From contig JBCCEJ010000004.1 in the NCBI GenBank assembly GCA_039030335.1, positions 9,771 to 73,770 on the forward strand: a DNA stretch of 64,000 nucleotides, given 5' to 3'. The DNA is from Pseudomonadota bacterium (GTDB taxonomy: Bacteria; Pseudomonadota; Gammaproteobacteria; HK1). A model generated the notes under the pieces. The model was given only the letters and a program-made list of their open reading frames with translations, had not been told where the DNA came from and searched no databases. The translations under genes and the position numbers were made by a program. How positions within the stretch are numbered: position 1 is the first letter of the stretch; every line of letters begins with the position of its first letter. Shown in pieces: positions 1-46,213 of the stretch.

Positions 1-264
1 CGGGCCCTCGATATCGGGCTGGTCGACCATCTGGTGGACGATGAAGGGCGAGAGCTGGCAACGGATGAGATCGTGGCGCGCTACGACGCGGCATTCTCAG
101 CGGGCGGCCGGCACGCCAAAGCCCTGTTGGCAGACTGCTTCAACACAGACTTCGCCGACTTTCTCGCGCTGTATGAGCGCCAACAGGGTCGTGCCGTCGA
201 GTCGCCAGACTTCGCCGAAGCCAAGGCAGCATACGCAGAGGGTCGTGACGCCAGGTGGCAGTAG
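1..264 (+). CDS. enoyl-CoA hydratase/isomerase (crotonase) family protein, C-terminal fragment; the gene starts upstream of the window
   Basis: Open frame from base 1 to the TAG at 262-264. The translation ends ...ALDIGLVDHLVDDEG...DFAEAKAAYAEGRD, which resembles crotonase-fold C termini. Confidence 0.5.
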   Translation, partial: RALDIGLVDHLVDDEGRELATDEIVARYDAAFSAGGRHAKALLADCFNTDFADFLALYERQQGRAVESPDFAEAKAAYAEGRDARWQ

Positions 265-304
265 TGCTGGATGCCGTCACCGGTTGGGTAACCGGAGGTG
301 AAGT

Positions 305-1009
305 GTGACCACCGAACTGAACGCTGACTTTTCGAGAACAGCCCGCGTGCACGCTGGAACGTCGCCTTGGATTCCGTCACCGATGCCGGGTGTGGAGCGC
401 AAACTCCTGGATCGCATCGGCGACGAGGTCGCCCGCGCGACCTCGATCGTGCGTTATGCACCTGGCAGCGCATTCTCCGCTCATACGCATGGTGGCGGCG
501 AAGAATTCCTGGTCCTCGACGGTGTTTTTCAAGACGAGCACGGAGACTACCCGATCGGTACTTACGTGAGGAATCCGCCCGGCACGCGCCACACACCGGG
601 GTCGGCGCCGGGCTGCATCATCTTCGTCAAGCTCTGGCAGTTCGCGGCTGACGACTCCAATCAGTTCAGCGTGGATGCGAACAGCGTGCCGCCGGCGAAA
701 GCGGGCGAAGCCGCGCGTCTCAAGACATTGCCAGATGTCGAGCGTCATCTGCTGCACGATGACCGGCACGAGACCGTCTGCGTAGAGCAGTGGCCGGGTG
801 CCACGACGTTTTCACTGGTAGTGCCCGATGGAGCAGAAATTCTGGTGCTCGACGGGGGCTTCGAGGCGGATGGCGGTGCCTATCGTCACTGGTCCTGGTT
901 GAGGCTTCCACCGGACGCTTCGGTGCGTGTTCGGACCAGCGTTGAGGGGGCCCGGGTCTGGACCAAGTACGGTCACCTGCGCGATGTCCTGGGGTTGGCG
1001 CCGGCGTGA
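305..1009 (+). CDS. cupin-domain protein (ChrR-like anti-sigma-factor cupin fold, two cupin repeats)
   Basis: GTG start with a GGAGG Shine-Dalgarno (SD) about 7 nt upstream. Two HxH...E...H cupin-like segments (SAHTHGGGEEFLVLDG; EILVLDGGFEADGGAYRHW). Confidence 0.55.
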   Translation: MTTELNADFSRTARVHAGTSPWIPSPMPGVERKLLDRIGDEVARATSIVRYAPGSAFSAHTHGGGEEFLVLDGVFQDEHGDYPIGTYVRNPPGTRHTPGSAPGCIIFVKLWQFAADDSNQFSVDANSVPPAKAGEAARLKTLPDVERHLLHDDRHETVCVEQWPGATTFSLVVPDGAEILVLDGGFEADGGAYRHWSWLRLPPDASVRVRTSVEGARVWTKYGHLRDVLGLAPA

Positions 1010-1623
1010 GCAGCGTCGACTTCAGCGGCCGGTTTGTGGTGTTCGGCTACGGATCGCTCATCTGGGACCTGGATGACCTCGCGCCGCACGTTGAACTGCC
1101 ATGGGAAATGGATACCGGTCCGGCGTTGCCGATGGAGTTCTCGCGAGTCTCGCCAAAGCGCAAACTTGGCCTTGTGGCAGTGCTCGATGCTGACCATGGT
1201 GACCCATGTCCGACACACGCGATCGCGAGTGTGCGCAACTCGATCGACGCCGCGGCTGAGGACCTCAAACGTCGGGAGCGGGCGTCGAGCGTGGCCAAGA
1301 TCGGCGCTGTTTGTATGCGGACCGGATTGCGCAGGTCGTTTGCAGCAGCCGTCGCGAAAGAGGTGGAGACGTGGTGCCGCGCGCGAAATGCGGCGGGCGC
1401 GGTGTGGGCCGATCTTGCCCCCAACTTCGCAGAAGTCACCGGGCATGCTTTTTCAGTCGAGCGCGCTTGTGACTATCTCAAGTCGTTGACGGGTGAGAAT
1501 CGCGCGGAAGCCGTGCGATACCTTCACTTCGCACCGCCGGCCACCGACACGCCGCTACGGCGTCGTCTGGCGCAGGAACTCTGGTGGTGCGAGGCGGTGC
1601 GTGAAGTCGTTGGTAGCGGTTGA
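1006..1623 (+). CDS. gamma-glutamylcyclotransferase-like (GGCT/AIG2/ChaC fold) protein
   Basis: FGYGSLIW motif near the N terminus. GTGA overlap with the preceding stop suggests translational coupling. Confidence 0.55.
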   Translation: MSSVDFSGRFVVFGYGSLIWDLDDLAPHVELPWEMDTGPALPMEFSRVSPKRKLGLVAVLDADHGDPCPTHAIASVRNSIDAAAEDLKRRERASSVAKIGAVCMRTGLRRSFAAAVAKEVETWCRARNAAGAVWADLAPNFAEVTGHAFSVERACDYLKSLTGENRAEAVRYLHFAPPATDTPLRRRLAQELWWCEAVREVVGSG

Positions 1624-1633
1624 CCTCGTTCGG

Positions 1634-4558
1634 TCAGGCGGCCTGCCGAACCGCATCGATGAGCTCTTTGGCATCAACCGGTTTGTACATCAGCCGTATG
1701 TGCCCGATTTCTGTCAGCAGTTCTTCGGCGAGATCGTGGCCAAACCCGGTGCAGAGGATAACCGGCGTCTCGTAGCCTTCCGTGCGTACGAGCCGCACCA
1801 GTTCGATACCCGTTAGGCCCGGCATGGTCTGATCCGTGATGACGACGTCGAAGGTGGCGCCCTGCTGGATTGCGTTCCACGCGCTCGTTGAATCGGTGAA
1901 CGCGCTGACGTCGAATCCCTCGCCGGTCAATAGTTCGTGAAGGTAGGTCGTCAGCGCGGGTTCGTCGTCGACCACGGCTACCCGCCGCGGCGCCTGGTCG
2001 ACTCGAGACAGCTGGCGCGCGGGTTGGTTCGCAGGCTCGAGCGCCATGTCGGCAACCGGCAGGTAACACCTGAATTCCGCGCCAATACGGTTCTCCGTGA
2101 CCACCGAGATATGTCCACCGTGCCGGTGAACGATGCCGTGGACGATGGCGAGTCCCATGCCAGAGCCGAGACCCACTTCTTTCGTGGAGTAGAACGGTTC
2201 AAAGATGCGACTGGTCGTTGTGGGTACCACGCCGGGTCCTGAGTCAGTCACGCGCAGGCAGACCATTTCCCCGGCGAATTTCGAACGGCACGACGCGCAG
2301 GTCACCGTATCGACCCGAGTGTTGTATGCCTCGATCCGGATCCGACCGTGCCGCCCGACGAAATCCCGCGCGTTGATACCGAGATTCATCAGAACCTGGC
2401 TGATTTCCGTGGGATCGGCGCGCACCTGTTCGAGATCGGTAGCGACGTCGACGCTGAGGTCGATCGTTGCAGGCAACGAGGAGCGCAGAAGTTGGCAGGT
2501 CTCGGCGATTGTCGAGCGCACGTCGATAGCGTCGAGCTCGACGACTTTGCTGCTGCTGAATTTGAGGAGCTGACCGACCAGCTCCTTGGCCCGGGTGCCG
2601 GCACGCAGGATTTCCTGAAGATAGCCACGCAGCCGTTCGTCCAGATTCTTGTCGAGAGCGCGCTCGGCGAGCTGCGCATGGCCCATAACAGACGCGAGGA
2701 TGTTGTTGAAGTCGTGTGCAAAGCCGCCGGAAAGATCGCCGAATGCTTCCATTTTCTGCGTCTGGCGCAGCTGTGCTTCCAGTTCCTCGCGCGTTTCGGC
2801 GGCTTCGCGCAGCGCGGTCTCGTCGCGCGCGACACCGACGATCGCGGTGACCTCGCCCTTTTCATCCAGGTACGGGGCCAGTTGGCCGTGCATCCAACGC
2901 CGGCCGAGATTTCGATAGTGCACCCAGGTCTCGACGCTCTGGCGTTGCCCAGCCCACAGCGCCGGCAGCGCCTCCTCCAGAACGGGCGGAATGTGGCCGC
3001 CCAGCAGCTCTTGCAGGCGCGCACCAATTACGGAGTCTCGTTCGAGGCCGTGATAACGAACGTAAGCGTCGTTAGCGCTCACGATGCGCAGTTCACGGTC
3101 GAACATGACCATGAGTTCGGTCGCGGTCGACGTCATAACCTCGTAGCGGCGCAACTCCCGAAGTCGCAGGAACCGCTCCGTCACGTCAACTATGACGAGC
3201 ACGGTTGAGCCGTCGTCGATGCGTCGTTCCGTGATCTCAATCCACGTGCCGGGGCGAAGCTCGACGGGACGCCTGGAGGTGCCGCTGCGGTGGTCTCGAA
3301 CCCTGGACCTTATCCACTCTTCCGGATTCTCGCGGGCTTCATACACGGCGCCCGCATCAACGGCGCGCCGCACCAGTTCCTCGAAGGTCATGCCCGCCTG
3401 TATCGCGCCGCAGATCGCGGCATTGAAACCGTAGCGCCACGTCTCGTTGTACGTCACCAGCCGGTCGCTGGCATCGAATAACGCAAACCCGTCGGGCACG
3501 CTCTCGAGCGCATTGAAGAAGCGCTTCTCGATCGCGCGGCCCCGTTCATCGAGTTGCAGCATCATGGTGTGCAGCCCGCCGGCAAGCTCCCGGATCTCGC
3601 TGGCCCCGCCGGGTGACGTCGGTTCGGGGCGGATACCGGCACCAAAGGCGCGCACCTGTTCGGTGAGTGCCGTCAGTGGGCGCGCGAGACTCCCGGCGAG
3701 CGTCAGGCCGACCACGATCGCAACGAGCGCGCAAAGCGCCGCGATGGCGCTCAGTTGGCGCCCGAATCCATAGGCCGGGAGGAGCGCTGATGAAACCGAC
3801 TGTTGTACCGAGACGCAGAACTCGCTCTGCGGCAACCACGTATAGGCGATCAGGACCGGCTCGCCGTCCCAGCGCGCGTCGGTCGATACGCCCGACTTGC
3901 CCGCCAGGCAGCGCTCCAATGCCGGTTCGGGTGGTGCCCTGCGCGGGCCTGAGGCGGGCAGGTCAGCGGGCCGGCTGCCGATAAGCAGGCGCCGTTTCGA
4001 GATGAGATGTACCTGCGCATCAGCCTCACGCTCGCCGCGGGGGCGCAAGATGGTGCGAAGCCCGTTCTTGTTGAGCGTGCCGGCCAGAACTCCGACGAGT
4101 TGGCCCTCATCGCTGCGCACCGGGGTCGCTGCCATCAGCTCCAGCATCCCGCTCGATGGAGAGAAATACGGTGCCTGCAGATACGGCCCGCGTTTGCCAG
4201 CCTTGAAGTACGGCATATGGTCGCGGCGTTTGCCGACCGCATCGGCTTCGCTGCTTTGCACGACGCTCCCGTCATCCGGGGACAAGAGCTCCAGCCTCGA
4301 AAACACCAGATGCTCGCTGGACCACGCGTTCAGCAACGAAGCGGCCGCGTCGGGCCGCGCAACGAGCAGCGTACTGGTGGAAGCGGCGATCCTATCGAGT
4401 TCCCGCAGACCATGATCGAACCAGTGTGCCAGCGCTGCCTGCTTCTCGGCCGACGCCAGCGCGAGCCGTTGCACGGTGTCAGTGCGGTGGGTGTCGACCG
4501 AACTCCGGTAGGCCAGCCAGGCGACCGTGGACACTGCCAACAGCACGACGGCCGCCAT
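1634..4558 (-). CDS. hybrid sensor histidine kinase/response regulator with a periplasmic sensor domain, PAS repeats, HisKA, HATPase_c and a C-terminal REC domain
   Basis: The ORF track gives 1634..4702. The first 48 residues are Arg-rich and look like upstream read-through. I therefore chose Met49 (ATG at 4558), which starts a transmembrane segment (MAAVVLLAVSTVAWLAY). H-box region HDFNNILASVMGHAQL. G-box GLGSGMGLAIVHGIV. The REC domain has VAVVDDE...DVVITDQTMPG. Confidence 0.8.
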   Translation of the reverse strand: MAAVVLLAVSTVAWLAYRSSVDTHRTDTVQRLALASAEKQAALAHWFDHGLRELDRIAASTSTLLVARPDAAASLLNAWSSEHLVFSRLELLSPDDGSVVQSSEADAVGKRRDHMPYFKAGKRGPYLQAPYFSPSSGMLELMAATPVRSDEGQLVGVLAGTLNKNGLRTILRPRGEREADAQVHLISKRRLLIGSRPADLPASGPRRAPPEPALERCLAGKSGVSTDARWDGEPVLIAYTWLPQSEFCVSVQQSVSSALLPAYGFGRQLSAIAALCALVAIVVGLTLAGSLARPLTALTEQVRAFGAGIRPEPTSPGGASEIRELAGGLHTMMLQLDERGRAIEKRFFNALESVPDGFALFDASDRLVTYNETWRYGFNAAICGAIQAGMTFEELVRRAVDAGAVYEARENPEEWIRSRVRDHRSGTSRRPVELRPGTWIEITERRIDDGSTVLVIVDVTERFLRLRELRRYEVMTSTATELMVMFDRELRIVSANDAYVRYHGLERDSVIGARLQELLGGHIPPVLEEALPALWAGQRQSVETWVHYRNLGRRWMHGQLAPYLDEKGEVTAIVGVARDETALREAAETREELEAQLRQTQKMEAFGDLSGGFAHDFNNILASVMGHAQLAERALDKNLDERLRGYLQEILRAGTRAKELVGQLLKFSSSKVVELDAIDVRSTIAETCQLLRSSLPATIDLSVDVATDLEQVRADPTEISQVLMNLGINARDFVGRHGRIRIEAYNTRVDTVTCASCRSKFAGEMVCLRVTDSGPGVVPTTTSRIFEPFYSTKEVGLGSGMGLAIVHGIVHRHGGHISVVTENRIGAEFRCYLPVADMALEPANQPARQLSRVDQAPRRVAVVDDEPALTTYLHELLTGEGFDVSAFTDSTSAWNAIQQGATFDVVITDQTMPGLTGIELVRLVRTEGYETPVILCTGFGHDLAEELLTEIGHIRLMYKPVDAKELIDAVRQAA

Positions 4559-38612: not shown

Positions 38613-39476
38613 TTGATGAATAGCGCTACACAGGAACCGATCACCGGTCTCGACCATTGCATCATTCTGGTCCGGGATCTGGACACCGCCGCCGAGCGGA
38701 TGCGCGCGCTGGGGTTTGCGCCAGCACCGCGCGGGGTGCACAGCGAGCATATGGGTTCACACAACCACTGCGTCATGCTGGAGCGTGGTTACTTCGAAGT
38801 GATGGCCTTGCGTTTCCCAACGGAGCACAACGAGCGGTGGCAAGCCGCGCTGGCGGTGCGCGAAGGGCTGGCTGCGATCGCATTGGAAACGAACGACGCA
38901 CAAGCGGCTGCTGGAGTGTTCGAATCGCGCGGTGTTCCGCCCGCACGGCTGGTCGACTTTTCCCGCCCGGTAGATCTGGGCGGCGAGACCCGAGATGCGA
39001 GCTTCACGACGCTGACTCTGCCCGACAGCGTGTCTCCGGTGCCGTCATTCCTGTGTCATCACCACACGCGCGACGTCGTGTGGCGGCCTGAGTACCTGAA
39101 GCACGCGAACGGGGCCTGCGCGTTTCTGGGACTGGTCATGGTAGCAGCCGACCCGCAGGCGACCGCAGCACAGATGTCGCCGGCTTATGGCGCACACCGC
39201 CGTCAGACGATCGCCGACGGTGTGCGCATCGACATGGGTTCGAGCGCGGTGAACATCGTCACGGCCGCGGCATTTGCGGGGCGCTACGCGGAAATTCCGC
39301 TCGATGCGGCAGCGGTCGCGCCTTATCTGGGCGCCATCAGGATCGGTGTCACCGATGCCGCCGTTACCGACGCCTGGTTGACCGGACACGGTGTAGCCAC
39401 CCATCGGAGCGCAGCCGGCACAACCTGCATTGCGCCAGCCGACGCCTGTGGTGCGCTGATCGAATTCGTGGCTTAG
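38613..39476 (+). CDS. VOC-family (glyoxalase/bleomycin-resistance/extradiol dioxygenase fold) two-domain protein
   Basis: LDHCIILVRDLDTAAERMRALGF N-terminal VOC module, with a second module later in the sequence. Confidence 0.75.
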   Translation: MMNSATQEPITGLDHCIILVRDLDTAAERMRALGFAPAPRGVHSEHMGSHNHCVMLERGYFEVMALRFPTEHNERWQAALAVREGLAAIALETNDAQAAAGVFESRGVPPARLVDFSRPVDLGGETRDASFTTLTLPDSVSPVPSFLCHHHTRDVVWRPEYLKHANGACAFLGLVMVAADPQATAAQMSPAYGAHRRQTIADGVRIDMGSSAVNIVTAAAFAGRYAEIPLDAAAVAPYLGAIRIGVTDAAVTDAWLTGHGVATHRSAAGTTCIAPADACGALIEFVA

Positions 39477-39521
39477 TCGCGCGACTTAAGCCTTTCTAAC
39501 AATTGAACCAGGGAGTACGCC

Positions 39522-39971
39522 ATGGCGTTACTGCAATTGGGCGTGCATGCGCCGGACTTCGCGTTGCCCAATCAGGACGACCGGACCATCCGTCTGCGTG
39601 ACCTGCGCGGGCGCAAGGTAGTGGTCTGGTTTTTCTCGCGCGCCTTCGGCAGTAACTGAACGAAAGAAGCGATCGGGTTCCGTGATCGAATCCTGGACTT
39701 CGAAGCTGCCGGCACGACCGTGCTCGGCGTGACCTTTTCGCCGCTGGATGAGCTGGTCAGGTTCAAAGCGGAGATCGGCTTGGGCTGTGACTTACTTTGC
39801 GACGCCGATCGGTCTGTCGCGATCGATTACGGAGCTGCCGACAGCACAAGCCAGGCGAAAGCCGGCCGGGTTACCGTCGTGATCGACGCCAGCGGGCAGG
39901 TCGCCCACGTTTACGCGCCGGAGGATGTTGCAGGACACGCCGAAGAGGTCCTGGCCGATCTCACGATGTAG
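39522..39971 (+). CDS. bcp: Bcp-type peroxiredoxin (AhpC/TSA family) with an in-frame TGA at codon 46 (39657-39659), exactly where the peroxidatic Cys sits; candidate selenoprotein, otherwise a nonsense pseudogene
   Basis: GGGAG SD 6 nt before ATG 39522. The translation is MALLQLGVHAPDFALPNQDDRTIRLRDLRGRKVVVWFFSRAFGSN-[TGA]-TKEAIGFRDRILDFEAAGTTVLGVTFSPLDELVRFKAEIGLGCDLL... It aligns to E. coli Bcp (...[23 protein letters not shown]...) on both sides of the TGA in the same frame. Confidence 0.6.
39670..39688 (+). other. short hairpin (CGAUCG-GGUUCCG-UGAUCG) starting 10 nt after the in-frame UGA; candidate minimal bacterial SECIS-like element
   Basis: 6-bp stem including one G:U pair and a 7-nt loop with GU. 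The position is right for a bSECIS (about 11 nt from the UGA). Confidence 0.3.
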
Positions 39972-40063
39972 GCGGCAGGTCGTTGTGTCCACGGCCGGAC
40001 CGCAACGGCGCCCCGAACGCCCGGTTTGCCCGGTGCGTCCGCGCGCCGCGGCGTCACTCAGGA

Positions 40064-41305
40064 TCAGCTCGCGGCCGCGGCGTTTGCAGCTTCTTCCTTG
40101 GCGGCCATCTGGGCTTTCAACTGCGCAGGCGTCAGCCGTACGATGTCTTCGTTTTGGTGGCTGTAGAGGTCGTACTGGTCGGTATCGAGATCTTCGAGCA
40201 CCGTCTTGCCGGCCAGCACGCTCGCTTTCCAGGCCTCGTGTTCCGCGTGGCGCTCATGAAACTCCGGCATGACCTCCTCGGCGAACAGCGTCAGGCTGTC
40301 GCAGATGTCCTGATGCGAAGTCTTGCCGGCCTGGTTCAGCAGGATCACCTGATCGATGTGAGCGGCTTCAAACTGCCGCAGGCGCTTGCGGATGGTCTCC
40401 GGCGATCCGATGAGGCCGTTCTTGAGCGCCGCCTCGGCCTTGTCGGTCTTGCGCCATGCCTGGTAGGCCTCCCACAAGTTCCCCTGCCCTGGTGCGTCCA
40501 CGCCCTTGCGGCCGTAGTACGACAACGCAAAGATGAAGAACGTCCAGCCGGCTGCCTTCTCGAGCGCCTCCTCGTCGGTTTCCGCGCACATGAAGCCGTT
40601 GACGATCGCGACGTTCGGATTGGTCGCATAGTTCGCGAGCCGCCGCGGTGCGTTCAGGAAGGTGTTGTAGTAGCGGTTCACCCAGGCCGTGGCCGCGTCT
40701 GGCGACACGAAGGAGAAACCGAGCGCACCCATGCCCCACGCACCCGCGTCGGCGATCGTCTGGATGTTGGAACACGCCACCCAGAGCGGCGGATGCGGCT
40801 TCTGATAGGGCTTCGGGATGACGTTGCGCGCCGGAAAGTCGAAGAACTGGCCGTGAAACTCCCAGTTCGTTTCCGTGAACATCGGAATGATCGCCTGCAC
40901 GGCCTCTTCCCAACGGTCGCGCTTGCTGCGCACCTGCACGCCAAACGGGTGCAGCTCCGCCGGCCCGGCGCCTTCGCCCATGCCGAGTTCCACTCGTCCG
41001 CCCGAGAGTAAATCGAGGGTCGCTACCTTCTCGGCGACGCGGTGCGGCTGGTTGGTCGTGATCTGGATGACGCCGTGACCGAGGCGGATGTTACGGGTGC
41101 GCTGGCTGGCGGCGCCGAGGAACACTTCGGGTGCCGTGGAGTGCGAGTACTCTTCGAGAAAGTGGTGTTCGACTTCCCACGCATAGTCATAGCCAAGGCG
41201 GTCGGCCAGCTCGATCTCGGTGAGCGAGTTCTGCAGCAGGTCGTGCTCCGCCAGATCGTGCCACGGGCGTGGGAGTTGATGTTCGTAGAAGACGCCAAAC
41301 TTCAT
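40064..41305 (-). CDS. LLM-class (luciferase-like) flavin-dependent oxidoreductase
   Basis: MKFGVFYEHQL N terminus typical of LLM proteins. GGAG SD 9 nt upstream of ATG 41305. The ORF track gives 41416. Confidence 0.8.
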   Translation of the reverse strand: MKFGVFYEHQLPRPWHDLAEHDLLQNSLTEIELADRLGYDYAWEVEHHFLEEYSHSTAPEVFLGAASQRTRNIRLGHGVIQITTNQPHRVAEKVATLDLLSGGRVELGMGEGAGPAELHPFGVQVRSKRDRWEEAVQAIIPMFTETNWEFHGQFFDFPARNVIPKPYQKPHPPLWVACSNIQTIADAGAWGMGALGFSFVSPDAATAWVNRYYNTFLNAPRRLANYATNPNVAIVNGFMCAETDEEALEKAAGWTFFIFALSYYGRKGVDAPGQGNLWEAYQAWRKTDKAEAALKNGLIGSPETIRKRLRQFEAAHIDQVILLNQAGKTSHQDICDSLTLFAEEVMPEFHERHAEHEAWKASVLAGKTVLEDLDTDQYDLYSHQNEDIVRLTPAQLKAQMAAKEEAANAAAAS

Positions 41306-41469: not shown

Positions 41470-43803
41470 GTGAGTGCCGAGTTGCATGACTTCGAGCGCT
41501 ACGCCATCGGACAGTCGGTCTCGCGAACGGAAGACCCGCGCCTGCTGACCGGAACCGGCACCTACACCGCCGATCTCCACTTCGACGGCATGGCGTATGG
41601 CTACGTGCTTCGGTCGCCCTACGCGCACGCCCATATCGAGCTGTTGGATGTCAGCGCGGCCCGCGGACTGTCCGGCGTGCTCGACGTGCTGCTGTGGGCT
41701 GATATGGCCGCGAGCGACGTGGGTTTGCTGCCTTGCAACAATCCGATCAAGAGCCGCGATGGTACGCCGCTCATCAAACCGCGCCGACCGTCGCTGGCGG
41801 ACGGTACGGTGCGCTATGTGGGCGAACCGTTGGCTCTCATCGTCGCGGAGTCGCTGGCCATTGCCCGCGAGGCGGCGGAACTGATCGAGCTCGAAGTGGA
41901 CGAGCTGCCGGCGGTGACCGACTTCATGGAAGCGATGGCCGACGGGGCGCCGCAGTTGCACGACGAGGCGCCGAACAACGTCGCGCTCGACTGGGAGTTC
42001 GGTGACGCGGATACCGTAGACACGGCGATGCGCGGCGCTGCGCACGTTTCGCGCCTGGTGCTCGGCAGCAACCGCCTCGTGATCAATCCGATGGAGCCGC
42101 GCGCGGCGATCGGCGAATACGTAGACGGACGCTACATCCTGCACGTCGGCTCACAAGGTGTATTCGGTATGCGCAATGTCATGGCGCGCAACGTCATGAA
42201 CGTGCCAGACGAGCAGATGCATGTGCGTACCTACGACGTCGGCGGGTCGTTTGGCATGAAGTCGGCAGTGTACCCGGAATACGGGCCGCTGCTGCTTGCG
42301 GCGCGCCGTCTCGGGCGTCCGGTGAAGTGGGTCGATGACCGGTCCGACAGCTTCGTCTCCGATCAGCACGGGCGCGACAGCGAAGCACATGTCGAAATCG
42401 GATTCGACGCTGACGGGCGCATCGTCGCCGGTCGCGTGTATTGCTACTGCGCCAACGGAGGTTATCTGAGCCCGGGCGGACCGTCGATGCATACCGGCAA
42501 CATTCCGCGCAATTTCCCAGGGCCGTACCGGTTGCCGCTGCTCTATGCCAGAACACGTGCCATGTTCACGAACACGACCCCTATCGGCGCGTACCGCGGG
42601 GCGGGGCGTCCGGAAGGCGTTTACTACATGGAGCGCGTGCTGACCCAGGCGGCCCACGAACTGGGGATCGACGCCGTCGAGCTCAGGCTGTTGAATCTCA
42701 TCGAGCCGGAAGCCCTGCCTTACGCGGCCGTATCGAAGCTGACCTACGACAGCGGCGACTTCCCGGGGATTTTGCGCGACGGGCTCGTGCACGCCGACTG
42801 GGACGGCTTCGAGGCGCGCCGGGCCCAGTCCGAAAGCCAGGGCAAACTGCGCGGACGCGGTTTTGCCTGCTATATGGAGGCGACGGGCGCGCCGGCTCGC
42901 GAGATGGGCGGCATTCGCTTCGAGGGTGACGGCACCGTCACGATGATCTCCGGTTCGCTCAACTACGGACAGGGGCATGCGGGTACTTTTGCGCAGATAG
43001 TGAGTTCGCACCTCGGCGTGCCGTTTGAACGGCTGCGGCTCATTCAGGGTGACAGCGATGAGGTGATCGCTGGTGCCGGGTCGGGCGGTTCGCGTACGGT
43101 TATCTCCGCGGGCGCGCTATTGCTGAAAGCGGCAGACGAAGTGATCGACCGCGGTAAGCAGGTAACCGGTTTCCTGCTCGAGGCCGATGCTGGCGATATC
43201 GAGTTCGAACGTGGGCGCTTTCGCATCGTCGGAACGGACCGCGGTATGACCATCATGCAGGTCGCCGAGGCGTTTCAGACCCTGGACGCGGTGCCGGCAG
43301 AGCTGGTCGGCGGCATGGACGTCAGATTGACGGATGACGCACCGCCATCCGCGTTTCCAAACGGCTGCCATGTCGCCGAGGTGGAGATCGACCCGGAGAC
43401 CGGAGAAGTCGCCGTGGACCGCTATGCCGTCATGGATGACTTCGGTACGCTCATCAACCCGATGCTCGTCGAAGGTCAGGTACAGGGCGGCGTGGCCCAG
43501 GGCCTCGGCCAGGCGCTGTTGGAACGTACGGTGTACGACGAGGACGGTCAGTTGCTGACCGGCTCGTTCATGGATTACACGATGCCGCGCGCCACCGATA
43601 TGCCAGACATCGCGTTTGCATCCCGCCCGATCCCCGCGACGACCAATCCGCTGGGTGCCAAGGGGTGCGGAGAAGCCGGCACGACGGGTTCTTTGCCTGC
43701 GATCATGAATGCCATCGTCGACGTGCTGAAAAAGGAACGCGGTATCGAGCACTTCGACATGCCCGCGACGCCGGAACGGATCTGGCGCGCATTGCACACC
43801 TGA
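41470..43803 (+). CDS. xanthine dehydrogenase/CO dehydrogenase-family molybdopterin-binding large subunit (form-II CoxL-like, AYRGAGR motif)
   Basis: GTG start. 777 aa with the aldehyde-oxidase/XDH a/b-hammerhead and MoCo-binding domains. AYRGAGRPEG motif. Confidence 0.85.
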   Translation: MSAELHDFERYAIGQSVSRTEDPRLLTGTGTYTADLHFDGMAYGYVLRSPYAHAHIELLDVSAARGLSGVLDVLLWADMAASDVGLLPCNNPIKSRDGTPLIKPRRPSLADGTVRYVGEPLALIVAESLAIAREAAELIELEVDELPAVTDFMEAMADGAPQLHDEAPNNVALDWEFGDADTVDTAMRGAAHVSRLVLGSNRLVINPMEPRAAIGEYVDGRYILHVGSQGVFGMRNVMARNVMNVPDEQMHVRTYDVGGSFGMKSAVYPEYGPLLLAARRLGRPVKWVDDRSDSFVSDQHGRDSEAHVEIGFDADGRIVAGRVYCYCANGGYLSPGGPSMHTGNIPRNFPGPYRLPLLYARTRAMFTNTTPIGAYRGAGRPEGVYYMERVLTQAAHELGIDAVELRLLNLIEPEALPYAAVSKLTYDSGDFPGILRDGLVHADWDGFEARRAQSESQGKLRGRGFACYMEATGAPAREMGGIRFEGDGTVTMISGSLNYGQGHAGTFAQIVSSHLGVPFERLRLIQGDSDEVIAGAGSGGSRTVISAGALLLKAADEVIDRGKQVTGFLLEADAGDIEFERGRFRIVGTDRGMTIMQVAEAFQTLDAVPAELVGGMDVRLTDDAPPSAFPNGCHVAEVEIDPETGEVAVDRYAVMDDFGTLINPMLVEGQVQGGVAQGLGQALLERTVYDEDGQLLTGSFMDYTMPRATDMPDIAFASRPIPATTNPLGAKGCGEAGTTGSLPAIMNAIVDVLKKERGIEHFDMPATPERIWRALHT

Positions 43804-43816
43804 GGAACGCAAACAG

Positions 43817-46213
43817 ATGCACGCGCCCGGGTCTGGCCTGATCGGAACGCCCCATCCGCGTCTCGAGGACCCGCGGTTGCTGACCGGGCGCGGGCAGTAT
43901 CTTGATGACCATGCGCCGGCCGGCTGTGTCCACGCGGTATTCGTGCGGAGCGAACACGCGCACGCCGAAATTCTCGCTATCGATGTGAGTCCGGCGTTGG
44001 CGGCCACTGACGTGCTGGATGTATTGACTGCGAGTGATCTGGATGCGCTCGGCCTGGGCGATCTCTGGCCAAACGCGCGCACGAATCCGCACACGGGCGA
44101 ACCGTTCCGGTTCGAGCCGATGCCGGTGCTCGCGCGCGGCCGGGTGCGTTACGTCGGCGAACCTGTGGCGTGCGTTGTCGCCTGTTCGCGCGACGCGGCC
44201 GCGGATGCCGCCGCGCTGGTGGATATCGACTATGCGCCGATCGCGGCAGCCGCGACGATGACGAGCGCGCTGGCGGCCGACGCACCAGCGATCTGCGCGG
44301 CCGCGCCGGGTAACCTCTGTATGGACTGGTTCACGACCGCGCCGCGTGAGGATGAGGACGCGGTAGATCGGGCGTTTGCCGAAGCCGCACACGTGGTGTC
44401 GCTCGACTGTCACAACCATCGGATCGCCGCTCAGCCGATGGAATGTCGGGGCGCACTGGGTGAATTCGACGCCCAAACGCGGCGCTATACCCTTACGCTC
44501 GCCAGCCAGAACGTGCACTCGATGCGCGACCATTTGCGCGGCGCGCTTGGCCAGAGTCAACCAGTGCATGGGGGCGCGCCGGCGCGCAAGTCGTTTCCCG
44601 ATCTGCGCGTGTTGGCACGTGATGTCGGCGGCGGATTTGGCTCGCGCAATTTCGTCTACCCGGAATATGCTGCCGTGCTCGTCGCCGCCGAGCGGCTGGG
44701 CCGACCGGTCAAGTGGGTAGCCTCGCGGTCGGAAGCGTGTATGTCGGACCACCCGGCCCGGGACGCAACGCTCAAGGTATCGCTGGCGCTGACCGCCGAA
44801 GGGCGTTTTCTGGCGATGCGCGCCGACGCGCTGTTCAACGCCGGCGGATACATGACCGGCGTCGCCTGCGGCGTACCCACCGGCCAATACATGGCTGCGC
44901 CGAGCACTGTGTACGATATCGCGCGCGTCGCTCTCCGGCTCCGCGTGGTGCTGACGAACACGGTGCCAATCGGTGTGACTCGCGGTCCCGGCTTCGCCGA
45001 GACGGTGGATCCACTGGAACGCCTTATCGACAAGGCCGCGCGTGAACTCGACATCGACCGACTCGAATTGCGGCGCCGCAACTTCGTGCGCACCGCCCGC
45101 ATGCCATGGCGCAATGCCGCCGGTACGCGGATCGACAGCGGTGATTTCCAGGCTTGCCTCGACAAGGCACTCGCACATGCGGATGTCGGCGGGTTTGCCG
45201 CCCGTGCCGCCGAGGCGCGCGAGCGCGGCCGCCTGCGCGGCTACGGGGTCGCGTGCCATATCAAAGGGACTGGCGGATCGCCCGAAGAAAACGTGCACTT
45301 CGGTTTTGACTTCAATGAGGGGGCCGGCGAGCGAAGCGAACGCCTCGTGTTCACGACCGGCACGCAGGCGATCGGGCAAGGCCACGAAACCTCGTTTCGC
45401 CAGATCGTCGCAACGCTGTTCGGCGTGCCGATGAGCGCTGTCGCCTACCGGGCTGGCGACACAGCCCTGATTCCGTTCGGTGGTGGGCACGGCAGTTCCC
45501 GCGCGACCTTCATGGCGTCGCAGGCGATGGTCTACGCGGCGAAAGCGGTCATCGCAAAGGGGCGTAGGGTTGCGGCCGACCTGTTTGAAGCGAGCCCGGG
45601 CGATGTGCGCTTCGAGTCGGGCGAGTTCTATGTAGACGGCACGGATCTCCGCGCGGGCTTGTTCGACGTGGCGCGTGAAGCGCGCGCGCTGGGCAGTTCG
45701 CTCGATACCTATCAGCACACTATTCGTGACGAATTGACGTGGCCGAACGGCTGCCACGTGGCCGAGGTGGAGGTGGACGTGGAAACGGGGCAGGTCGAAC
45801 TGCTTCGCTATACCACCGCCGACGACCACGGCGTCATGGTGAACCCGATGCTGGTGTCCGGTCAGGCGCACGGCGCGATCATGCAGGGTGCCGCGCAGGC
45901 ATTGCTCGAACAGGTGCAGTACGCGCCGGACGGACAGCTGCTGACCGGCTCGTTTCTGGACTACGCGATGCCGCGCGCCGCCGACCTGCCGCCACTCGAC
46001 CTGCATTTCTGTCCGACGCGGTGTACGACCAATCCGCTCGGTGTCAAAGGGGCTGGCGAGCCGGGCGCGATCGCCGGTTTTCCAGCGGTGCAAAATGCCA
46101 TCGCGCATGCGTTGGACGTATCGCCGGATGCGTTGCGCGGTGCGGCGACGCCCAACCGCGTCTGGGCACTCATGCAGCGCTCGGCAGTGCCGTCGGTCGA
46201 CACCGGCACATAG
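43817..46213 (+). CDS. second xanthine dehydrogenase-family molybdopterin-binding large subunit (tandem paralog)
   Basis: 798 aa, collinear with the previous gene (both have the NGCHVAEVE(I/V)D motif). 13-bp intergenic gap. Confidence 0.85.
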   Translation: MHAPGSGLIGTPHPRLEDPRLLTGRGQYLDDHAPAGCVHAVFVRSEHAHAEILAIDVSPALAATDVLDVLTASDLDALGLGDLWPNARTNPHTGEPFRFEPMPVLARGRVRYVGEPVACVVACSRDAAADAAALVDIDYAPIAAAATMTSALAADAPAICAAAPGNLCMDWFTTAPREDEDAVDRAFAEAAHVVSLDCHNHRIAAQPMECRGALGEFDAQTRRYTLTLASQNVHSMRDHLRGALGQSQPVHGGAPARKSFPDLRVLARDVGGGFGSRNFVYPEYAAVLVAAERLGRPVKWVASRSEACMSDHPARDATLKVSLALTAEGRFLAMRADALFNAGGYMTGVACGVPTGQYMAAPSTVYDIARVALRLRVVLTNTVPIGVTRGPGFAETVDPLERLIDKAARELDIDRLELRRRNFVRTARMPWRNAAGTRIDSGDFQACLDKALAHADVGGFAARAAEARERGRLRGYGVACHIKGTGGSPEENVHFGFDFNEGAGERSERLVFTTGTQAIGQGHETSFRQIVATLFGVPMSAVAYRAGDTALIPFGGGHGSSRATFMASQAMVYAAKAVIAKGRRVAADLFEASPGDVRFESGEFYVDGTDLRAGLFDVAREARALGSSLDTYQHTIRDELTWPNGCHVAEVEVDVETGQVELLRYTTADDHGVMVNPMLVSGQAHGAIMQGAAQALLEQVQYAPDGQLLTGSFLDYAMPRAADLPPLDLHFCPTRCTTNPLGVKGAGEPGAIAGFPAVQNAIAHALDVSPDALRGAATPNRVWALMQRSAVPSVDTGT

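Follow-up and report, generated by a model that had tools for sequence, protein, structure and literature searches.

Does the UGA codon that interrupts a Bcp-like peroxiredoxin gene mark a broken gene, or is it a codon for selenocysteine (Sec)? This question is raised by an open reading frame (ORF; 39522–39971) in a 64-kb stretch of DNA from an uncultured proteobacterium (64,000 nucleotides, hereafter referred to as the window), for which a sequence-only reading had proposed a candidate Sec enzyme. The analysis below indicates that this ORF is very probably a selenoprotein gene encoding a Bcp/PrxQ peroxiredoxin fold, with the UGA being read as Sec. The earlier proposal thereby gains support from a TGA that is conserved among relatives, a conserved SECIS-type hairpin, and purifying selection past the TGA.

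Reading frame and genomic context of the UGA-containing gene

The Shine-Dalgarno-like sequence, the ATG start codon, and the in-frame TGA are situated where the sequence-only reading had placed them, and upon re-reading, the frame again remained open past the TGA up to the TAG stop codon, with no further lesion (Table 1). The TGA is the only one in frame within the ORF, and the Pfam AhpC-TSA domain (PF00578) of the read-through product extends across it (residues 7–129, E-value of 4.6e-27). When the product was aligned with 25 full-length Bcp homologs, the TGA fell in a column of near-invariant Cys, which bears out its initial assignment to the peroxidatic position. Moreover, the two halves of the ORF have the same GC profile over the three codon positions as the neighbouring genes (i.e., GC1/2/3 of 0.64/0.42/0.80 and 0.69/0.45/0.73). 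Since TGA is the normal stop codon of 6 out of the 11 verified genes in the window, the genetic code is not reassigned. A scan of the 64-kb window for other ORFs with TGA read-through returned just adjacent genes in the same frame or weak candidates, and neither a second Prx paralog nor a second SECIS match was found in it, making this RAFG-type Sec-Bcp gene (named after its active-site motif) the only one there.

Table 1. Coordinates of the Sec-Bcp locus in the window, and of the Sec machinery genes with adjoining Sec-Bcp paralog on contig L034 (Gammaproteobacteria MAG).
Sequence	Feature	Position	Strand	Basis or remark
Window	VOC/glyoxalase-family gene (MEM7404164.1)	38616..39476	+	upstream, 45-nt gap; order matched in L096
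Window	Shine-Dalgarno-like GGGAG	39511..39515	+	6 nt 5′ of ATG 39522; direct sequence reading
Window	Very probable selenoprotein CDS, Bcp/PrxQ fold	39522..39971	+	complete, 149 codons + TAG 39969–71; Sec = residue 46
Window	Gly43 codon GGC, catalytic Thr/Ser position	39648..39650	+	alignments; Gly in 32/32 distinct subfamily members
Window	UGA as very probable Sec codon (U46), peroxidatic-Cys position	39657..39659	+	alignment to near-invariant Cys; TGA in relatives
Window	Possible lower SECIS helix (tentative)	39666..39701	+	GAAG 39666–69 with CUUC 39698–701
Window	SECIS-type hairpin (candidate)	39675..39693	+	GGGUUC 39675–80 pairs with GAAUCC 39688–93; apical loop CGUGAUC 39681–87
Window	Arg116 codon CGG, conserved peroxiredoxin active-site Arg	39867..39869	+	invariant in Bcp alignment and subfamily
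Window	LLM-class flavin oxidoreductase (MEM7404166.1)	40064..41305	-	downstream, convergent; context only
L034	tRNA-Sec	222-317	-	
L034	selB	380-2257	-	40% identical to E. coli
L034	selA	2272-3582	-	52% identical to E. coli
L034	PKADTPG-U Sec-Bcp paralog	3853-4296	+	divergent from selA, adjoining

The VOC/glyoxalase gene may be co-transcribed with the Sec-Bcp gene, and clustering of the flanking ORFs of 79 loci revealed no universally conserved operon partner. Two genes for xanthine-dehydrogenase (XDH)-family molybdopterin-binding subunits (window positions 41470–43803 and 43817–46213) are located a few kb from the Sec-Bcp gene, and XDH-family subunit genes also lie within a few kb of RAFG-type Sec-Bcp genes in at least seven loci (L020, L021, L027, L032, L089, L131, and L096), with a CoxG-like gene in between both in L027. 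This proximity could be functional (e.g., if an oxidase produces peroxide, or if Mo hydroxylases depend on selenium) or a coincidence.

The UGA codon is conserved across the RAFGxxU subfamily

When the part of the ORF following the TGA was used alone as a query against 1.84 billion representative proteins, almost all matches were C-terminal fragments, starting either two residues past the Sec or at the next start codon. Two full-length entries (P0149 and P0177) carried a W at the Sec position, and the DNA underlying P0149 (TARA contig L002) has a TGA there. Running the peptide pattern WFF[SP]RAFG over 185,579 species genomes yielded 80 loci, and the codons at the Sec position were collected from these loci and from two TARA contigs, resulting in 62 genes with TGA, 17 with TGC, and 9 with TGT. 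Genes of the WFF[P/S]RAFGxxU type, which are 46–54% identical to the window gene, had TGA in 33 out of 33 cases on genome contigs, whereas the 26 genes with TGC or TGT were confined to distant canonical Bcp (33–42% identical). The hosts of the 33 RAFG-type genes were Alpha- and Gammaproteobacteria, represented by MAGs, among them one with a closed chromosome, and by a single isolate (Thioalkalivibrio sp. HK1). Their ORFs are intact, measuring 147–154 aa from an ATG start codon, with the U at residue 46.

Metagenomes gave the same picture. A search of 241 million metagenome records for DNA encoding WFFxRAFGxx found TGA-AC directly after this motif in 52 contigs (51 of them with a clearly intact gene), versus 0 occurrences with TGY-AC in that place. 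No Cys form of the RAFGxxU subfamily was thus present among the genome loci and metagenome contigs, which is the opposite of the TGC codon in close relatives that the sequence-only reading had named as the sign of a recent nonsense mutation. The SRAFGSN-U version of the motif, as found in the window, is shared with L006, L010 (the ortholog of Thioalkalivibrio sp. HK1), L024, L092–L094, L096, and others. Since the same substitutions recur across the subfamily, those features of the window gene that look like decay are in fact traits of the subfamily.

Two matches stood apart. The metagenome match at 965–999 of L136 was degenerate (i.e., WFFPRAFGQA-stop-TCAE-stop-EDG), with a second stop codon 4 codons past the TGA and without the hairpin described below, and is probably a decayed copy or a chance match. 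At ca. position 3131 of L075 (a Terriglobales MAG), the sequence FFPRADTPG-TGA-TVEACGFRD also has a TGA at the peroxidatic codon, followed by a different downstream sequence (GGGTTCCGCGACGCACATAGG) without the conserved 3′ arm of that hairpin. In the latter gene, Cys may have been exchanged for Sec independently and with a different SECIS, or the gene may be a pseudogene.

A conserved SECIS-type hairpin follows the UGA

Alignment of the 60 nt from the UGA onwards in 86 distinct genes revealed a near-invariant consensus (GGGUUC-CGUGAUC-GAAYCC) starting 18 nt after the UGA. The 6-bp stem of this element was paired in 98.8% of the 516 cells of these 86 distinct sequences, a level reached by 0 out of 500 shuffles, and slid registers attained at most 67%. 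Since most stem pairs are invariant, covariation rests on few sequences, with compensatory changes in two pairs being provided by L093 (GAGCUC/GAGCUC) and L068 (GGGCUC/GAGCCC). Both of these double changes imply amino-acid replacements that preserve the pairing. Third-position entropy was 0–0.54 bit at codons 52–56 versus 0.9–1.9 bit at most other conserved residues, and one codon prevailed at each of these positions (GGG 28/32, TTC 32/32, CGT 32/32, GAT 27/29, and CGA 29/32). This pattern shows that the constraint on the hairpin region extends to the nucleotide level, beyond that of the protein alone.

The published bSECIS model comprises an upper stem of 4–16 bp, a loop of 3–9 nt with a G within its first two positions, and a spacing of 16–37 nt (PMC13188914). 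The hairpin in the window falls within this model, as it has a 6-bp stem and a 7-nt loop with G-U at loop positions 2–3, the loop starting 24 nt from the U of the UGA. The arrangement of TGA, 15 nt, and the consensus matched once in the window (0 expected by chance), with 0 mismatches to the family consensus. A possible lower helix (GAAG/CUUC) was paired in 81% of cells, with some two-sided changes, and is part of the minimum free energy fold of 39657–39705. With –6 kcal/mol, the hairpin is small. When the region was folded as a single sequence, the result was no better than for shuffles (z of +0.78; z of –0.30 and +0.75), which speaks neither for nor against a SECIS, and the support for an RNA element is hence purely comparative. 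Rfam at gathering thresholds reported a tRNA-Gln as the sole match in the window, and no SECIS families.

The sequence-only reading had pointed to a hairpin at 39670–39688 as the SECIS. Its CGAUCG and UGAUCG arms can indeed form a stem, but this is not the conserved element, which overlaps with it. As the 5′ arm of the hairpin at 39670–39688 shows no constraint among relatives, that hairpin was dropped as a functional element.

Protein-level selection on both sides of the UGA

Contig L096 carries a syntenic ortholog of the locus, with a hypothetical gene (87% amino-acid identity), the VOC gene (52%), the Sec-Bcp gene (58%), and the LLM oxidoreductase gene (88.5%), and its synteny extends into the start of an XDH-family gene. 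Comparing the Sec-Bcp genes of the window and L096 yielded a pN of 0.26 and a pS of 0.73 upstream of the TGA, and a pN of 0.31 and a pS of 0.73 downstream of it. Overall, pN was 0.29 versus a pS of 0.73, although the corresponding ratio of ca. 0.13 is a rough figure since pS is saturated. Even so, it is clear that amino-acid replacements were selected against both before and after the TGA, which would not be seen in untranslated sequence.

The VOC and Sec-Bcp genes are much less similar between the window and L096 than the hypothetical and LLM genes on either side, which points to fast evolution or exchange of this gene pair. The window copy of Sec-Bcp differs from the subfamily consensus at 7 out of 47 strongly conserved positions, the highest number of all members (0–5 in the others), mostly by conservative changes. 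Its best full-length homologs among 5.8 billion proteins were 41–45% identical. The only near-identical match (P0001/L001) derives from the same organism, its DNA being 100% identical, and was not counted as independent evidence.

Sec machinery and tandem Sec-Bcp paralogs

The 64-kb window contained no tRNA-Sec, and tblastn with E. coli queries found no SelA, SelB, or SelD homologs in it. As the window, which is part of a 167-kb MAG contig, covers just 64 kb of a genome of several Mb, this absence weighs little. Elsewhere, in L034, the tRNA-Sec, selB, and selA genes sit next to a Sec-Bcp paralog of the PKADTPG-U type (Table 1), of which the UGA is followed by the identical 19-nt hairpin. This layout ties the Sec-Bcp protein family physically and directly to the Sec machinery.

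Tandem arrangements were observed as well. TARA contig L002 carries two Bcp-like genes (148–591 and 711–1154) whose peroxidatic codons are TGA, and a canonical PKADTPG-U Bcp gene followed ca. 120–130 nt further by a RAFGxx-U Bcp gene was encountered in L002, L003, L009, L023, L033, and L035. In such a pair, TGA is the peroxidatic codon of both genes, and the two also share the 19-nt hairpin. The sequences suggest that the tandem pair stems from an old duplication of a gene that already contained Sec, and perhaps the two genes form a functional pair.

By its presence, the window gene would imply that this uncultured proteobacterium decodes Sec. We infer that this decoding is SelB-dependent, with a SelB complex delivering Sec as the UGA enters the A site, so that translation across 39657–59 would yield one product of 149 residues.

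Fold, active site, and putative chemistry

An AF2 model of the full-length protein (pLDDT of 89, pTM of 0.86) superimposed on BCP, PrxQ, and AhpE crystal structures with TM-scores of 0.86–0.92. The active-site motif reads S39-R-A-F-G43-S-N-U46, and therefore departs from the PxxxT/SxxC motif at two positions, i.e., the Pro is replaced by Ser39 (most subfamily members keep the Pro) and the Thr by Gly43. The sequence-only reading had already remarked on this SxxxGxxU in place of PxxxTxxC, and as the Gly is fixed across the subfamily, it does not reflect decay. Compared to canonical Bcp, near-invariant residues have been lost (Y38F, P39S, T43G, and W106), along with a 5-residue deletion. The ORF also has no Cys at position +5 from the Sec, and a conserved second (resolving) Cys is absent from the subfamily, as the same reading had stated for the window protein.

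In the proposed mechanism, Sec46 would act at the peroxidatic position beside the conserved Arg116, and would reduce peroxides or a related oxidant via a selenenic-acid intermediate. As a conserved resolving Cys is missing from the subfamily, the recycling of this intermediate would fall to an external thiol (thioredoxin, glutaredoxin, or glutathione). Judging from the residues present, such a 1-Sec mechanism with external-thiol recycling is the most likely one.

The catalytic Thr of peroxiredoxins is reported to be exchangeable for Ser, but not for residues without a hydroxyl group (PMC7231847). With Gly at the catalytic Thr/Ser position (and, in the window gene, also Ser for Pro) where the hydroxyl is reported as essential, peroxidase activity is not assured. 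The missing hydroxyl together with the missing Cys form suggests that Sec may compensate for the lost Thr, or that the clade may have changed function. A tentative proposal, which we regard as possible without favouring it, is that RAFGxxU forms a Sec-only, Thr-less peroxiredoxin lineage in which selenium has made the Thr/Ser dispensable, or which has taken up a redox role other than that of a peroxidase. If a Cys version were not viable, as the Sec-only reading holds, this would explain the 0 TGY versus more than 80 TGA codons. Such a lineage would, if real, be a natural experiment on what Sec gives an enzyme, and a Gly-for-Thr site without a Cys counterpart offers a testable case for the question of Sec versus Cys usage.

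Alternative explanations

An ordinary pseudogene, i.e., a Bcp paralog with a recent nonsense mutation or a sequencing error, would account for the in-frame stop codon as well as for the losses at positions 38, 39, 43, and 106 and the 5-residue deletion relative to canonical Bcp, and its sole near-identical sequence (L001) is the same DNA. Yet the TGA and the substitutions are common to ca. 80 intact orthologs at ca. 50% identity, the sequence 3′ of the stop is under purifying selection, and the RNA element is conserved, which makes this the least credible of the explanations considered, and one that we hardly entertain. It is also highly improbable that the UGA is decoded as an amino acid other than Sec (e.g., Trp or Cys) via code reassignment or near-cognate read-through. 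The W in database proteins P0149 and P0177 might be taken to favour this, but is a TGA on the DNA, so that the W is the product of a different code table. In addition, TGA is used as an ordinary stop in the window, the codon stands at a redox-active Cys site and precedes a SECIS-type hairpin, and in L034 a paralog is linked to selAB-selC. A relic, in turn, would be a selenoprotein gene by descent in an organism that has lost Sec decoding, so that the 45-residue peptide alone is made. The Sec machinery is indeed not seen in the 64-kb window, and no other member diverges as much at conserved positions as the window copy; nevertheless, the ORF is intact, the UGA context and the 19-nt hairpin agree with the family consensus without mismatch, and pN is far below pS past the TGA when compared with the syntenic ortholog in L096. 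We therefore consider a relic quite unlikely, and retain an active selenoprotein gene as the preferred reading.

Within that reading, an alternative that concerns the chemistry only is that the protein is a selenoprotein but not a classical peroxiredoxin, with the RAFGxxU clade catalysing another redox reaction or using another peroxidatic mechanism. The Gly is fixed at the Thr position (32/32) in a loop that has changed from D-T-P to F-G-x, only Ser is reported to be able to substitute for Thr (PMC7231847), and the genome loci and metagenome contigs contain no Cys form. The frequent tandem with a canonical PKADTPGU paralog moreover suggests a division of labour, and the protein scores under the NCBIfam Bcp cutoff (see below). 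On the other hand, Arg116, T47, E49, and the Bcp GFRD segment are kept, the fold is intact, and the nearest relatives among solved structures, which share the AF[S/T]xxC spacing, are true Bcp peroxidases. On balance, we deem a departure from classical chemistry rather unlikely, and continue to regard the window protein as a Sec-containing peroxiredoxin of the Bcp/PrxQ type.

Consequences for annotation

Gene callers split the Sec-Bcp gene into fragments of 45 aa and 83 aa. Protein collections hold its relatives, dozens of them, mostly as C-terminal fragments beginning just past the Sec codon or as entries with a false Trp at the Sec position. Misannotated entries include P0149 and P0177 (with W), as well as P0148, P0150, P0151, P0154, P0156, P0166, P0167, P0171, and many ME[GA]xGFRD fragments of 100–108 aa. 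These fragments and false Trp residues amount to a systematic mis-annotation of selenoproteins, and the signature TGA-N15-GGGTTCCGTGATCGAAYCC offers a simple means of recovering such relatives.

For the window gene itself, NCBI numbering assigns MEM7404164 to the VOC gene and MEM7404166 to the LLM gene, leaving MEM7404165 at the Bcp locus (window 39476–40064). This entry is neither the 45-aa nor the 83-aa fragment, both of which are recorded only from Logan, and the full protein with X or C at residue 46 had no exact match in the protein collection. We infer that MEM7404165 is an annotated, U-containing (Sec) protein, which is possibly missing from the searchable collection because of its U content.

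Comparison with known systems

Among solved structures, the window protein is 24–29% identical to Cys-type Bcp/PrxQ proteins, and shares the thioredoxin/Prx fold (TM-score of ca. 0.9), the AF[S/T]xxC-TKE spacing, and the catalytic Arg with this group, which includes A. pernix Bcp (2cx3), Sulfolobus Bcp1 (3drn) and PrxQ (2ywn), X. campestris PrxQ (5iiz), and E. coli Bcp. The closest solved sequences are those of A. pernix Bcp (FFPAAFSPVC-TKE) and Sulfolobus PrxQ (FYPAAFTQVC-TKE), compared to FFSRAFGSNU-TKE in the window protein. Many Cys-type Bcp members likewise have no Cys at position +5. Differences from this group are the Sec in place of Cys, the Gly in place of Thr/Ser, and a YGVW...MYGR loop that is 5 residues shorter. 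None of the NCBIfam models scored above its cutoff for the window protein, with the Bcp equivalog (NF006960, thioredoxin-dependent thiol peroxidase) reaching 84.7 bits, below the cutoff of 140.

PrxU of Eubacterium acidaminophilum (NF040737), likewise a Prx-fold selenoenzyme whose Sec occupies the peroxidatic position, is a member of another Prx class, and the window protein scores only 23 bits against a cutoff of 270. PrxU retains the Thr.

As for the RNA element, the SECIS of E. coli fdhF and fdnG is likewise a stem-loop that lies within the coding sequence shortly after the UGA, carries G-U in its apical loop, and has a spacing within the 16–37 nt of the bSECIS model. The candidate hairpin in the window differs from it in sequence, in its short upper stem of 6 bp and loop of 7 nt, and in having no evident bulged U.

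The closest known system is the Sec-Prx family (COG1225/Bcp, pfam00578) described from Sargasso Sea and GOS metagenomes, which shares the fold, the Sec at the peroxidatic site, and a SECIS just downstream, and whose hosts are mainly marine Alpha- and Gammaproteobacteria (PMC1088965, PMC2398784). This family counted 253 sequences in GOS (PMC2398784). Its motif is given as TxxU or PxxxTxxU, in contrast to GxxU in the clade of the window gene and SxxxGxxU in the window gene itself, and the Gly-for-Thr clade is not singled out in the family descriptions (PMC1088965, PMC2398784). Nevertheless, RAFGGGU and RAFGNNU sequences of this same clade (e.g., JCVI_READ_1091140759810) appear in the Peroxiredoxin section of GOS supplementary file 3, with examples reading ...WFFPRAFGGGUTKQIDGFRDRI... 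and ...WFYPRAFGNNUTKQINGFRDRA..., and the supplementary dataset also contains 50 sequences of the PKADTPGU paralog type. Both the family and this clade were therefore already catalogued. What is residually new lies in the Thr-less clade without a Cys form, with the window gene itself being a further member of a selenoprotein family catalogued in 2005–2008.
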